A DNA stretch of 40,000 bases from Halosimplex rarum (GCF_047715405.1 NZ_CP180412.1:4294341-4334340); one strand, 5' to 3'. Numbered from the stretch's first letter, positions 24,859-27,928 are shown. Numbers and translations: made by a program. Notes: a model not told the origin generated them from the sequence alone.

Positions 24859-26019
24859 TTATTCAATCACTTCCGAGATACACTCCTGATCGATTGGTGC
24901 AGATGGTTCTCCATCGTCAATTGTCGCATCGAGCACCCGGCTACAGAGGCTGAGAATCTGCCGTACATTCCCCTGTGAACGCTGGAGAATATACTGGAGT
25001 CCATCCTCGGTAAACGGCTCGATACCACCTCTTGACTCATCCCGGGCGAGGTCGAGATATTCACGTACGAGACTTTGGATCTGCTCTTCTGTCATGGGAC
25101 GGAGTGCAACCTCCTGGCCGATCCGTTCCGAGAACGCATGATATTCGCTCATCACGTCCTGCCAGACCTCGGGTGCACAGCCGAAGAGCACACAGAGTCC
25201 CTGGCTGTTCTGATCCATCAGGTGTCGAATGCTGTTCAGCGTTGCTTGTTCGTCTTTCGGCGAGAGACGAGCGATACGCTCGAATTCATCGACGAACATG
25301 AACACGCCCGTATAGTCGAGATCACGGAGCATGTTCTTCAGTGCAGTGAAGGCCCGCACAGCTGTCGTATCATCGTCGATCGCGCTGTGGATCTCCATCT
25401 CCTTGCGTTGCTCGTATCTGAGTCCCTCGGCAGTGAGCCACTGCCACGCGTAGAGATTGGTATCTTCATAGACGAGATGTACGAGTGCCCGCGCGAAGTC
25501 GGCGAACTTCGTCACATCACTCAGTTGTTGGACCGCCGTCGGCACGATTTCAGAAAGGAGGACTTCGCCATCATCGATCAAATCCTCCATTGCAGACGCA
25601 CTCATCGGGTTTCGGTCAGTCTCTTCCCGCGTGACTTCAGCGAGGTATTCGTAGCTCAACTCCTGAAACCGATCGAAGCCGACGTCGTAGATAAACTCGT
25701 GGTAGATGTCGAGGAACCCCTCGCCCGGTTGGGCCACGTATCCGACGAAGACGTCGTCTCGATCCCGGACGAGCGACCGAGTGTATTTGAGGGTATGGGA
25801 CTTTCCGTTGCCGTACTTCCCGGTTACGACAAGGTGTTTCGACTTCCCCGTGCTGAGGACTGATGAGACAGTATTGCTGATCCGATCGGTGACGTGTTCC
25901 TGGCCACAGTAGATCAACGGATCATCGTTCGGGACTGGGCTGTAGGGGAACGGGTTACTCTCGAGGCCGAACTCCGAGTAGTCGCGCTGTTCGTCTGTAA
26001 TCGTGAAGTTTCCGCTCAT
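24859..26019 (-). CDS. P-loop ATPase (AAA/Orc-like 'archaeal ATPase' type), third gene of the TGT-like operon
   Basis: Walker A 'VVTGKYGNGKSHTLKY'. Walker B 'VFMFVDEFERI'. N-terminal 'ESNPFPYSPVP...YCGQEH' leader typical of this ATPase clade. ATGA overlap with the upstream gene at 26016-26019. Confidence 0.8.
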   Translation of the reverse strand: MSGNFTITDEQRDYSEFGLESNPFPYSPVPNDDPLIYCGQEHVTDRISNTVSSVLSTGKSKHLVVTGKYGNGKSHTLKYTRSLVRDRDDVFVGYVAQPGEGFLDIYHEFIYDVGFDRFQELSYEYLAEVTREETDRNPMSASAMEDLIDDGEVLLSEIVPTAVQQLSDVTKFADFARALVHLVYEDTNLYAWQWLTAEGLRYEQRKEMEIHSAIDDDTTAVRAFTALKNMLRDLDYTGVFMFVDEFERIARLSPKDEQATLNSIRHLMDQNSQGLCVLFGCAPEVWQDVMSEYHAFSERIGQEVALRPMTEEQIQSLVREYLDLARDESRGGIEPFTEDGLQYILQRSQGNVRQILSLCSRVLDATIDDGEPSAPIDQECISEVIE

Positions 26020-26897
26020 GAGTGGGTGTACGTGAGGTTGCGGTCGTGGACCGTGAGGTAGTAATACTGTTTGCCGAACTGTTCGATACCAGCCATTACT
26101 CGATCGGTGGACTGCGATGTTGAGACAAGTCCCTCATCATCGGAGAGTTCCATGGTCTTGATCCCGTAGTCTGCCTCTTTGGCACCGGTATCAACCGGCG
26201 CTCCCGATAGTTCTAGTTTTCCGACGTTCTGCTGTGCGAGTGACCCGAGTGCTTCGTCGAAGGCATCGCGTGTCGCACCAAGGCGGCTACAGAGTTCTTC
26301 ACGCACCTCGGGGATCGAGAGATAGCGCTGTCGCATGCCCACTCCAGCGGTCTCTTCGAGGTCGTCGTAGACCTGGAGGAGCGCGTACTCGAACGTGTTT
26401 GGGATGTTGTCTTCTTCCGTTACGTAGTACTCGCCGGTGAACGCGTTGCGCTGTAACACACCGAGCCGTCCTGCCCAGTCGCCGAGCACCTCGACACTGG
26501 CCTGATTGTAGGTGTACGGGCTGAACTCAGCACTGGCTTCGAGTTCCGTGAGCGTCTCCTCAAGCGTGATCGGGCCCTCAGATTCAACGACGTCGATGAA
26601 CGCGCCGTAGTGAGGACTCCGCGTCTCGAGAATGGAACTCACTCGGAACCAGTCTTCAGTCCGAATCGCCTCGACGAACGATTCACCGACAGCGGTACAT
26701 TCGTACAAATCATCGTCGGATTCTTCGAGGAGTGCGATACGGGAGGCTTCGAGGATAGCTGAGCGAGCTCGTCGATGGCTGACGTCAAGTTTCTCCTCGA
26801 TATCTTCTGTCGTCTGCTGTCCGTCGCTACAGAGATGCGCTACCTCGACGAGTCGTGCGAGCGACACCGGCCGGACAGTCGGTCGCTCGTCACTCAT
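26016..26897 (-). CDS. Multi-domain wHTH-like protein, middle gene of the TGT-like operon
   Basis: N-terminal 'LARLVEVAHLCSDGQQTTEDIEEKLDVSHRRARSAILEASRIALLEE' looks like a winged helix, with a second helical/wHTH-like region near residues 200-230. ATGA overlaps occur at both ends (26016-26019 and 26894-26897). No family recognised. Confidence 0.7.
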   Translation of the reverse strand: MSDERPTVRPVSLARLVEVAHLCSDGQQTTEDIEEKLDVSHRRARSAILEASRIALLEESDDDLYECTAVGESFVEAIRTEDWFRVSSILETRSPHYGAFIDVVESEGPITLEETLTELEASAEFSPYTYNQASVEVLGDWAGRLGVLQRNAFTGEYYVTEEDNIPNTFEYALLQVYDDLEETAGVGMRQRYLSIPEVREELCSRLGATRDAFDEALGSLAQQNVGKLELSGAPVDTGAKEADYGIKTMELSDDEGLVSTSQSTDRVMAGIEQFGKQYYYLTVHDRNLTYTHS

Positions 26898-27928
26898 GTG
26901 AGCCTCCGGACCTGCTGCTTGGCAAGTTGGAACGCACGATTTGTGACTTCGTTCCCCTGGAAGCGGAGGTCGAGATACCCCTCCAGATCTTCACCTGCGG
27001 CGGCCATGTATCGGAATCGGCGCAGTTCAAGCGCTAACGCCCAGAGGTTATGCTGGACGAGGAGATCGCGGTCATCACGGACCGCATCAAACCTCCGCGT
27101 ACTGCAAATCGGGCAGGCGCACGGCAGGTGGGACAGTTCCTCGATGTTCTTCATCGGTTCGCCCCCGAACCCCGGGATCAGATAGTTCCGATTGCCAGCA
27201 CTCCGGATGAACGCCGAGGAGTCGAAACTATCCACACCGAGATAGAGAAGGAGCGGTTGGTACGTGACGCCCCCAAGCCCGTAGACGTGCAGATGTTTTT
27301 CCGTTGCTCGCCTGGCCGCTAGTATAATCTTCGTTACCTTTTCATAGTCGGTTCGGATGGGGACGAGACTTCCGAGGGCGTAGCCATCGAACTCGCCGTT
27401 CCGTTCCAGATGTCGGATACTGTTCCGGACCGTCTCGGGGTCGTACCCGTGGACACTGCCGAAGAGGAGTGCGTCCCCATCGTGGCGCTCACTTGCTTCC
27501 AGAGCGAGGTCGATACTCCGACTGATCCGGCGTTGGTTCTCCGCTTGCCGGTTGTCTCTAGAGAGGGGAACGTCGACGGTTCCGTAGATGTCCGCCTCGA
27601 TCTGAGACTGTGTTTCAAGTGTCTCTTCGGGAGTCGTGTCGACCTCGTTCTGCTGAAAATCGAACCCCCCACTATCGGCGAAGATGATCGTCTCATCCGA
27701 GACATCCATCTCCCCCCGTAGTGTGGACTCCCCCTGGAGTCGGTTCCATTGCGGTTCCCGGTTCCGGATGGCCCGAGCGTTGACCATCGCCGTGGGCAGG
27801 TCCGGGATGCTATCGGTGTATTCTGGTGTATTGTCGCTCGATCGTTTCCCGATGTTACTGACCGGGAAGAGGACGGGCGTCTCGACCGTCCCGTGTGGTG
27901 TCTCGAGCGATCGATGTCTGTACAGCAT
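26894..27928 (-). CDS. Short TGT-superfamily protein (DpdA-like candidate DNA-guanine transglycosylase)
   Basis: 'LETPHGTVETPVLFPV', catalytic-loop 'FADSGGFDFQ', 'LHVYGLGGVTYQPLLLYLGVDSFDSSAFIRSAGN' and Zn site 'CACPICSTR...VQHN'. It is only about 344 aa and has no PUA-type C-terminal domain. ATG 27928 is preferred over the TTG at 27979. Confidence 0.8.
   Translation of the reverse strand: MLYRHRSLETPHGTVETPVLFPVSNIGKRSSDNTPEYTDSIPDLPTAMVNARAIRNREPQWNRLQGESTLRGEMDVSDETIIFADSGGFDFQQNEVDTTPEETLETQSQIEADIYGTVDVPLSRDNRQAENQRRISRSIDLALEASERHDGDALLFGSVHGYDPETVRNSIRHLERNGEFDGYALGSLVPIRTDYEKVTKIILAARRATEKHLHVYGLGGVTYQPLLLYLGVDSFDSSAFIRSAGNRNYLIPGFGGEPMKNIEELSHLPCACPICSTRRFDAVRDDRDLLVQHNLWALALELRRFRYMAAAGEDLEGYLDLRFQGNEVTNRAFQLAKQQVRRLT

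Follow-up and report, generated by a model that had tools for sequence, protein, structure and literature searches.

Which proteins could take over the work of DpdB in a locus that encodes a DpdA transglycosylase and no DpdB? Bacterial DpdA requires ATP hydrolysis by DpdB, and DpdC converts dPreQ0 to dADG (PMC10164549); why DNA transglycosylation needs ATP at all, and what DpdB does, are open questions for Dpd (PMC10164549). The question is raised by a 40,000-nucleotide stretch of the Halosimplex rarum genome (GCF_047715405.1, NZ_CP180412.1:4294341-4334340; hereafter the window, meaning this stretch at its full length), in which three minus-strand genes in a row encode a short protein resembling a tRNA-guanine transglycosylase (TGT), a protein of three winged helices and a P-loop ATPase. 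We refer to these proteins as A, B and C. An initial annotation of the window had proposed that A acts as the DpdA of the system, that B and C stand in for DpdB, and that B targets the complex to particular sequences. As described below, a true DpdA is encoded next door, and the reading that we hold to be slightly better than evenly balanced is that the trio would be an ATP-driven, obligate partner of this DpdA that replaces DpdB in an archaeal Dpd-type module writing 7-deazaguanine into DNA.

The trio and its neighbouring DpdA

Protein A belongs to the TGT superfamily, PF01702 being its sole Pfam domain (1.1e-30; 107.4 bits against a cut-off of 26.3). Its closest sequence relative is the archaeal tRNA TGT (arcTGT, TgtA): the best PDB match was the P. 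horikoshii enzyme 1IQ8 (7.6e-21), aligned to residues 30-327 of the 582-residue chain, with which A shares the TIM barrel, the zinc subdomain and equivalents of Asp95, Asp249 and Asp130. The full catalytic signature with which A had been credited could be followed residue by residue. The motifs FADSGGFDFQ (containing D85), LHVYGLGG, GVDSFDSS (D236) and CACPIC...H (C270, C272, C275 and H293) are all present; D85, D119 and D236 align to the catalytic and base-binding Asp95, Asp130 and Asp249 of arcTGT, and C270, C272, C275 and H293 to its zinc ligands C279, C281, C284 and H307. Among 19 members of the A family, down to 28% identity, D85, D233, D236 and all four zinc ligands are invariant and D119 nearly so. 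It was also correct that A has no tRNA-recognition domains, as only PF01702 was found and neither the Pfam scan nor the 1IQ8 alignment placed a C1, C2 or PUA domain in its 344 residues, compared with 582 in arcTGT. A further differs from arcTGT in its genomic context, which is one of DNA modification and defence, and in falling far below the equivalog cut-off for TgtA (TIGR00432, its best NCBIfam match, at 145 bits against 350). What could not be upheld is the proposal that A is the DpdA of the system. It scored only 39 bits against the DpdA model NF041059 (cut-off 200), phmmer gave 0-36 bits with DpdAs and about 90-120 bits with arcTGT catalytic domains, and the true DpdA lies beside it. A had no match in PHROGs.

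The gene immediately upstream of the trio does encode a DpdA, scoring 267 bits against NF041059, 3.5e-70 against the PADLOC DpdA model and 1.9e-39 against its PDB match, Salmonella DpdA (7UI4). The catalytic aspartate pair (equivalents of Asp95 and Asp256), the CxCxxC motif and its histidine are invariant in 39 orthologues. Because A and the archaeal DpdA both keep invariant catalytic residues, these systems hold two apparently active transglycosylases. DpdC is a DUF328/YaaA-like amidohydrolase. The C-terminus of the DpdA matches DUF6884 (PF21818, 33 bits against a cut-off of 30) and the PADLOC DpdC models (1.3e-9), with no match in NCBIfam; a homologous domain from Paenibacillus matches DUF6884 and also YaaA (PF03883). 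Where DpdA is short and unfused, a separate 235-residue DUF6884 gene lies between it and A. Since DpdA-DUF6884 adjoins the trio in every complete locus, the functional unit has four to five components, two of them catalytically intact TGTs.

Protein C is a P-loop ATPase unrelated to DpdB, as originally described. It matches PF10923 (BrxC_BrxD; 2.9e-16, 59.8 bits against a cut-off of 22.2) and carries an N-terminal NPFP motif, a Walker A motif (G67-KYGNGKS-74) and a Walker B motif (F242-VDEFE-247), the latter two invariant in 22 orthologues. Because C passes the PF10923 threshold and falls far short of the BrxD equivalog NF033438 (42.9 bits, cut-off 350), it is a member of the family and not a BrxD orthologue. 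Its only PADLOC matches were BrxD and SngB, PHROGs gave a single marginal match to a DNA-transposition ATPase family (5.2e-5), and no sequence relatives were found in the PDB. The AlphaFold2 (AF2) model of C is poor (pLDDT 53, pTM 0.42). Assignment of either B or C to DpdG, DpdH or DpdI was rejected, as neither has a Dpd match in PADLOC. A paralogue of C (395 residues, phmmer 2.3e-11) was seen on a Bathyarchaeia-like contig (locus L040, 13624-16218), where it adjoins a HerA-like ATPase downstream of an N6/N4 DNA methyltransferase, an arrangement that points to reuse of C-type ATPases by other modules for DNA modification or capture.

Protein B falls into no curated family of Pfam, NCBIfam or PADLOC, with just a faint match to the HVO_A0261_N winged helix-turn-helix (wHTH) domain. 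It also has no sequence relatives in the PDB, no PHROGs match and no match to DUF4007 or BrxA. Its AF2 model (pLDDT 80, pTM 0.77) bears out the earlier description of a multi-winged-helix protein, with winged helices at about residues 10-68, 95-160 and 169-234, followed by a conserved stretch of predicted disorder (236-266) and, at the C-terminus, a beta-hairpin. Foldseek matched the model to tandem winged-helix proteins (RPC62, the FokI recognition domain, SelB WH1-4 and AlkX/YcaQ). A total of 450 homologues of B were found, and the named ones among the matches listed are all haloarchaeal. The putative DNA-reading helices are among the most conserved parts of the protein, and a role for B as a variable, sequence-targeting subunit is therefore not favoured.

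Both 4-nucleotide ATGA overlaps on which translational coupling had been proposed can be read in the sequence (Table 1). One such start/stop overlap is common in operons and alone says little. However, 34 of about 39 haloarchaeal loci have an (A/G)TGA overlap between A and B, and the B/C junction is ATGA in 17 and TAATG in 19. Tight junctions are kept even where gene order is permuted, as in the C-A-B arrangement of locus L043. GGAGG precedes the start of B by 7-8 nucleotides; an AGGAGG-like motif is found before the start of C in many loci, but not in the window. Because the junctions are conserved across loci, the overlaps are meaningful, and the trio is a conserved translationally coupled unit.

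Co-occurrence of the module and absence of DpdB

A scan with one genome per species and B as the seed yielded 38 loci in about 30 haloarchaeal genera, on chromosomes as well as plasmids. The order DpdA(-DUF6884), A, B, C on one strand was found in 36 of the 36 loci that are uncut by contig ends, and the que genes for preQ0 synthesis are usually adjacent. Across these loci A is 69-81% identical to its counterpart in the window, C 69-90%, B 53-78% and DpdA 54-68%. The set of PLSDB plasmids with A, B and C at full length coincides exactly with that encoding the archaeal DpdA and comprises nine haloarchaeal plasmids. The initial annotation would have been undone had the three genes been scattered, or had the B and C genes kept unrelated company; in the haloarchaeal loci and PLSDB the trio was always together and never with unrelated neighbours. 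The possibility that these are plasmid genes is partly borne out, as the module does travel on plasmids and integrated elements. In about half of the loci it is adjoined by restriction genes of the type found in BRIGADE, a Dpd-like system named in a September 2025 preprint and reported from halophilic archaea alone, whose hallmarks are YprA helicases, PLD nucleases and a 7-deazaguanine cluster (bioRxiv 10.1101/2025.09.15.676423).

The reverse search, in which metagenomes were scanned from a DpdA alignment, gave 79 loci, 32 of which have all three trio genes and 15 part of the trio before the contig ends. The other 32 have no trio gene and are mostly contigs ending less than 3 kb from DpdA. The real exceptions are distant DpdAs (27-32% identity) with other partners, for example HerA, or with a second TGT like that of Paenibacillus (L122 and L124). 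Beyond Halobacteria, an exhaustive search of representatives with A uncovered short TGTs at 33-41% identity, one cluster of which is named Bathyarchaeia. Their contigs (38-54% GC) encode orthologues of all four proteins in permuted orders: A-B-C-DpdA in L040 and L044, and C-A-B in L043, where DpdA-DUF6884 is on the opposite strand beside QueC, QueT and FolE. These three archaeal contigs are low in GC (38-48%). Orthologues of B are thus also present in L040, L043 and L044. In Methanofastidiosa, a lone short TGT of the wider A family has housekeeping surroundings, with neither B nor C nor DpdA, and marks the edge of the trio association. The trio was absent from INPHARED phages, where A had only weak matches to Xanthomonas jumbo phages, and from IMG/VR.

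Some modules appear to be in decay. The Halospeciosus flavus plasmid NZ_CP122313.1 has two copies of the whole module, both decaying, with A split by a frameshift in one (L037) and B and DpdA split in the other (L038). Five further haloarchaeal plasmids in PLSDB (H53-H57) hold unannotated fragments of C covering 14-35% of its length at 58-74% identity, which appear to be pseudogene remnants of lost modules.

In agreement with the initial annotation, no DpdB was detected. Scans of selected window open reading frames (ORFs) with Pfam and the other profile collections found no ParB/DndB/DGQHR-like protein, and a tblastn search of 131 loci (1.98 Mb) with one cyanobacterial DpdB, which remote homologues could escape, matched only the bacterial plasmids of Allocoleopsis and Scytonema. 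These two plasmids belong to a set of five with DUF6884-DpdA proteins; identity among the four cyanobacterial proteins in the comparison is 57-66%, and the protein from Paenibacillus shares about 44% identity with these four. Allocoleopsis and Scytonema have a DndB-like DpdB, no second TGT and no linked NTPase. The Nostoc (L047) and Picosynechococcus (L046) plasmids have no DpdB and instead carry a second, short TGT without a zinc subdomain together with two overlapping DEAD-box helicases, and the Paenibacillus plasmid (L049) has no DpdB, a second TGT and a KAP NTPase, behind which lie DpdJ and DpdK. DpdB and a second TGT with an NTPase were therefore never found together in the five plasmids, a complementary distribution that fits the non-orthologous replacement of DpdB. 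The domain order of the DUF6884-DpdA fusions in L046, L047 and L049 is the opposite of that in the archaeal fusion. BLASTP did not relate C to the Paenibacillus KAP NTPase, and hhalign of B was negative against both a 246-residue protein of Paenibacillus and a 359-residue neighbour in L040. The parallel between the bacterial and archaeal clusters is, as far as sequence comparison can tell, one of architecture and not of descent.

What the trio may do

If the trio replaces DpdB as an obligate partner of DpdA, the following course can be envisaged. QueD, QueE, FolE and QueC of the island would make preQ0. C would supply the ATP-dependent step that DpdB supplies in bacteria, and B would use its three winged helices to hold the complex on DNA; together they may load onto, distort or open the duplex such that the target guanine is flipped into the transglycosylase active site. 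A would act on DNA within this complex as a second competent transglycosylase, either as a partner of DpdA or through its own exchange of guanine for preQ0. The DUF6884 domain would then turn dPreQ0 into dADG, and the product of the module is probably one of these two bases. The mark may protect the DNA of the element or the host and, in about half of the loci, be read by the neighbouring BRIGADE-type restriction genes (YprA helicases and PLD nuclease). The module also persists where no BRIGADE restriction genes lie within 10 kb, the window included, as is expected of a modification module and not of a restriction module. As for the original suggestion that the ATPase and the winged-helix protein replace DpdB, it remains plausible in view of the complementary distribution, but the picture of a DpdA-like enzyme with two new partners was too simple, as a true DpdA-DUF6884 adjoins the trio.

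Several observations weigh against the replacement of DpdB by the trio. If C and B alone did the work of DpdB, a second active TGT would be needless, and simple replacement leaves its role unexplained. BrxC/BrxD-type ATPases sit on the sensing or restriction side of BREX. Likewise, according to the BRIGADE preprint, the BrxC-like DpdH and DpdI belong to the restriction half of canonical Dpd (bioRxiv 10.1101/2025.09.15.676423). By phmmer, A is nearer to the tRNA-modifying arcTGT than to DpdA. The either/or pattern in bacteria comes from five plasmids only, in which neither the second TGTs nor their NTPases are orthologous to A, B or C. Finally, the absence of DpdB was judged from Pfam scans of selected ORFs and a tblastn search with a single sequence, and a very divergent ParB-like protein could have been missed.

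The main rival explanation, which we disfavour and consider unlikely, is that the trio reads or licenses the modification as the sensor of the restriction half. A would flip out and test G versus 7-deazaguanine, B would bind the DNA, and C would use ATP to couple the outcome to BRIGADE-type or other restriction nucleases. Members of the family of C do act in BREX sensing or restriction complexes, with DpdH and DpdI on the restriction side as well; about 20 of the 38 loci have a YprA helicase, PLD or associated BRIGADE Type II gene no more than 10 kb from the trio; and the cyanobacterial second TGT is sandwiched between two DpdF/BrxHI-like helicases. However, a pure reader would need no nucleophile, whereas in A the catalytic aspartate pair and the base-binding aspartate show little or no variation among homologues with as little as 28% identity. 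The trio is also always beside DpdA and only sometimes beside restriction genes, some loci, including the window, having no YprA or PLD within 10-25 kb, and the bacterial trio-like module is present exactly where the modification factor DpdB is absent.

The presence of two enzymes that both look active could alternatively mean that A, B and C together form a self-sufficient, ATP-dependent DNA transglycosylase working in parallel with DpdA, on another motif or strand or with another derivative, in which case DpdA-DUF6884 would not need the trio. This is the rival closest to the idea of the initial annotation, and we regard it as rather improbable. The trio does have its own coupled operon 100-1100 nucleotides from dpdA, sometimes inverted or with intervening genes, and second TGT genes recur in other Dpd-like clusters. 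Yet by bacterial precedent an independent DpdA would still need an ATPase and no other is conserved in the loci, the archaeal-type DpdA never occurs without the trio where the contig is long enough, and the complementary distribution with DpdB argues for functional dependence.

That A instead acts on tRNA as a mobile-element TGT (a split or truncated arcTGT), or attaches 7-deazaguanine to a partner such as B or C in the manner of Cap10, is very improbable: its nearest relatives are indeed arcTGT catalytic domains, the lone Methanofastidiosa TGT has a housekeeping context and Cap10 provides a precedent for a TGT fold retargeted to proteins, but A has no C1, C2 or PUA tRNA-binding domains, is coupled without exception to the winged-helix protein, the BrxD-like ATPase and DpdA with its DpdC-like domain in a setting of plasmids and defence islands, keeps the invariant CxCxxC..H that Cap10 lost along with its nucleic-acid surface, and is accompanied only by a canonical QueC and by no Cap9-like enzyme.

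Returning to the trio as the obligate partner of DpdA in place of DpdB, a broader and more tentative possibility is that systems for 7-deazaguanine in DNA have two interchangeable designs. One would be DpdA with DpdB, and the other DpdA with a second, active, DNA-directed TGT harnessed to a motor, which would be the BrxD-like AAA+ ATPase with the triple winged-helix protein in archaea, DEAD-box helicases in cyanobacteria and the KAP NTPase in Paenibacillus. The second TGT may form a hetero-pair with DpdA, as in QTRT1-QTRT2 but with both sites live, or read the modification state and so couple writing to restriction. If true, this would be a new principle for how a base-exchange enzyme gains access to duplex DNA.

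In any case, the locus represents a widespread archaeal variant without DpdB in which a second, apparently active TGT, a putative DNA-binding protein and an AAA+ ATPase are under strong purifying selection (identity across genera is about 70-90% for A and 70-92% for C), and it could offer an orthogonal system for the study of the ATP-dependent step. The module predicts dPreQ0 or dADG in the DNA of many haloarchaea and their plasmids, and genetically tractable carriers are available among Haloferax and Halobacterium strains. The halovirus HVTV-1 carries dPreQ1, and its host is Haloarcula vallismortis. As this host has the module, the system may bear on conflicts between haloviruses and their hosts. 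A DpdA homologue on its contig AOLQ01000002 was mentioned in passing by Hutinet et al. (PMC6884629), and the full module is present on that contig (our locus L015).

Genomic surroundings and known systems

The features of the window are collected in Table 1. For A, the ATG at 27928 was taken as the start, giving the 344-residue length common to all homologues; a TTG at 27979 was rejected as an extension by the ORF caller. The GTG start of DpdA-DUF6884 at 31236 was set by the orthologue consensus MRFYVPEWDD. An ATG at 31695, giving a 1123-residue ORF, was rejected as an over-extension when compared with this consensus; that version has about 150 extra, non-acidic residues and overlaps the divergent 413-residue ORF.

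Table 1. Features of the Halosimplex rarum window (positions counted from its first nucleotide)
Feature	Position	Strand	Remarks
Family-B DNA polymerase	7133-9466
Mrr-nuclease/MCM winged-helix fusion	9939-11705
ParA-like gene	13484-14167
SRAP	19474-20163
GmrSD	20320-22440
Orc1/Cdc6	22621-23649
ArdC-like antirestriction/metalloprotease gene	23750-24835		true start probably at METTESS
C (386 aa)	24859..26019	-	BrxC/BrxD-family (ORC/Cdc6-like) P-loop ATPase
ATGA overlap, stop of B/start of C	26016..26019	-	read from sequence: ...CTC ATGA GCG...
B (293 aa)	26016..26897	-	three tandem winged-helix domains, disordered segment, C-terminal beta-hairpin
ATGA overlap, stop of A/start of B	26894..26897	-	read from sequence: ...CAC ATGA GTG...
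A (short TGT, 344 aa)	26894..27928	-	arcTGT-like catalytic domain and zinc subdomain, without C1/C2/PUA
Small divergent wHTH gene (96 aa)	28037..28327	+	between DpdA and A; HTH_27/HxlR/PadR-type matches
DpdA with C-terminal DpdC-like DUF6884 fusion (970 aa)	28324..31236	-	next gene upstream of the trio
413-aa ORF, family unassigned	31367..32608	+	divergent from DpdA, between DpdA and que operon
QueD-QueE-FolE-QueC, preQ0 biosynthesis operon	32752..35289	+	adjoins the module in most related loci
QueD	32752-33213	+	PTPS Pfam match
QueE	33217-33984	+	Radical_SAM Pfam match
FolE	33987-34604	+	GTP_cyclohydroI Pfam match
QueC	34597-35289	+	QueC Pfam match
UvrD-type helicase/PD-(D/E)XK nuclease fusion (1047 aa)	35452..38595	-	UvrD-helicase, UvrD_C and PDDEXK_1 Pfam matches

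Three further genes lie among or beside those of the module. The 96-residue wHTH gene is in the same place in six other loci and is also annotated on plasmid NZ_CP084465.1; its product is probably a local regulator and occurs in some loci only. The 413-residue ORF had no match in Pfam, NCBIfam, PADLOC or PHROGs. It recurs close to the module in L003, L017 and L029 and is matched in part in L014, and its place in the system is uncertain; a VVEAKGE-type motif in its sequence may be that of a PD-(D/E)XK nuclease. The UvrD-PD-(D/E)XK gene adjoins QueC here and also flanks the que genes in Halosimplex aquaticum (L017) and Salinibaculum rarum (L030), and its product may be an alternative partner on the restriction side in loci without BRIGADE genes. 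As a whole the window resembles an integrated plasmid-like or defence island, with no tRNA gene in the island-like region from 7133 to 24835. A patch of low GC (0.43) lies at 16-17 kb.

How does the locus compare with systems already described? BRIGADE occupies the same islands, its restriction genes being at most 10 kb away from the module in about 20 of the 38 loci, and the plasmid NZ_CP084465.1 that encodes its representative helicase WP_226013624.1 has an orthologous DpdA-A-B-C module about 8 kb away. A BRIGADE locus would combine one or two YprA-like helicases and a PLD or PD-(D/E)XK nuclease with a neighbouring 7-deazaguanine cluster. The window itself is not one, as it contains no homologue of the YprA helicases, the PLD nuclease or Csa3, h288, h308, h1031 or h278, and its UvrD-PD-(D/E)XK gene is not a YprA helicase. 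The BRIGADE protein labelled 'DpdHI/BrxC' is more likely a separate AAA_22 protein of 1031 residues than C. The text of the preprint speaks only of a '7-deazaguanine biosynthetic cluster' and makes no mention of TGT, DpdA, DpdB or the trio, whose genes may nevertheless be drawn in its Supplementary Figure S1. The trio itself appears to be so far undescribed, and on our best reading the module defines the modification half of the haloarchaeal BRIGADE islands.

BRC systems combine a TGT, an ORC/Cdc6-type ATPase and a tripartite DNA-binding protein and are proposed to lack DpdB, with an NTPase suggested as its substitute (PMC12839542, 2026). In these points they resemble our locus. However, the defining genes of BRC (HerA/FtsK, PglZ, DUF6079, a STAND NTPase and DUF4007) are all missing here, and BRC has no DpdC; membership was rejected on the absence of HerA, PglZ, DUF6079 and DUF4007. 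Possible relatives of the published BRC systems are the metagenome loci L111 and L123, in which a distant DpdA homologue (28-32% identity) precedes a protein of about 400 residues and a HerA-like ATPase; in L111 a second small TGT, DpdA-like and 336 residues long, is also encoded. In Cap10 of type IV CBASS the TGT fold has been retargeted to protein, with loss of the zinc site and the nucleic-acid-binding surface. A is not of this type, as its zinc ligands are invariant, there is no CD-NTase or QueC-like Cap9, and QueC is canonical (251 bits). With BREX the locus shares PF10923 in C, for which BrxD is the best PADLOC and NCBIfam match, but PglZ, PglX, BrxA, BrxB and BrxL are missing and there are no other BREX genes in the window.

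The bacterial two-TGT clusters are similar in that DpdA is fused to DUF6884, DpdB is absent and the gene for a second short TGT overlaps or abuts NTPase genes. They differ in that the NTPases are DEAD-box or KAP proteins and not BrxD-like, there is no homologue of B, and the second TGTs either have no zinc subdomain (cyanobacteria) or are DpdA-like and not arcTGT-like (Paenibacillus). The bacterial Dpd system itself (DpdA/DpdB/DpdC of Salmonella Montevideo, PMC10164549) has in common with the archaeal locus a DpdA orthologue, adjacent preQ0 genes, a putative counterpart of DpdC, an expected need for an NTPase and location on a mobile island. The archaeal locus departs from it in having no DpdB, in the fusion or adjacency of DpdA to DUF6884, and in its conserved arcTGT-like TGT, triple winged-helix protein and BrxD-like AAA+ ATPase.

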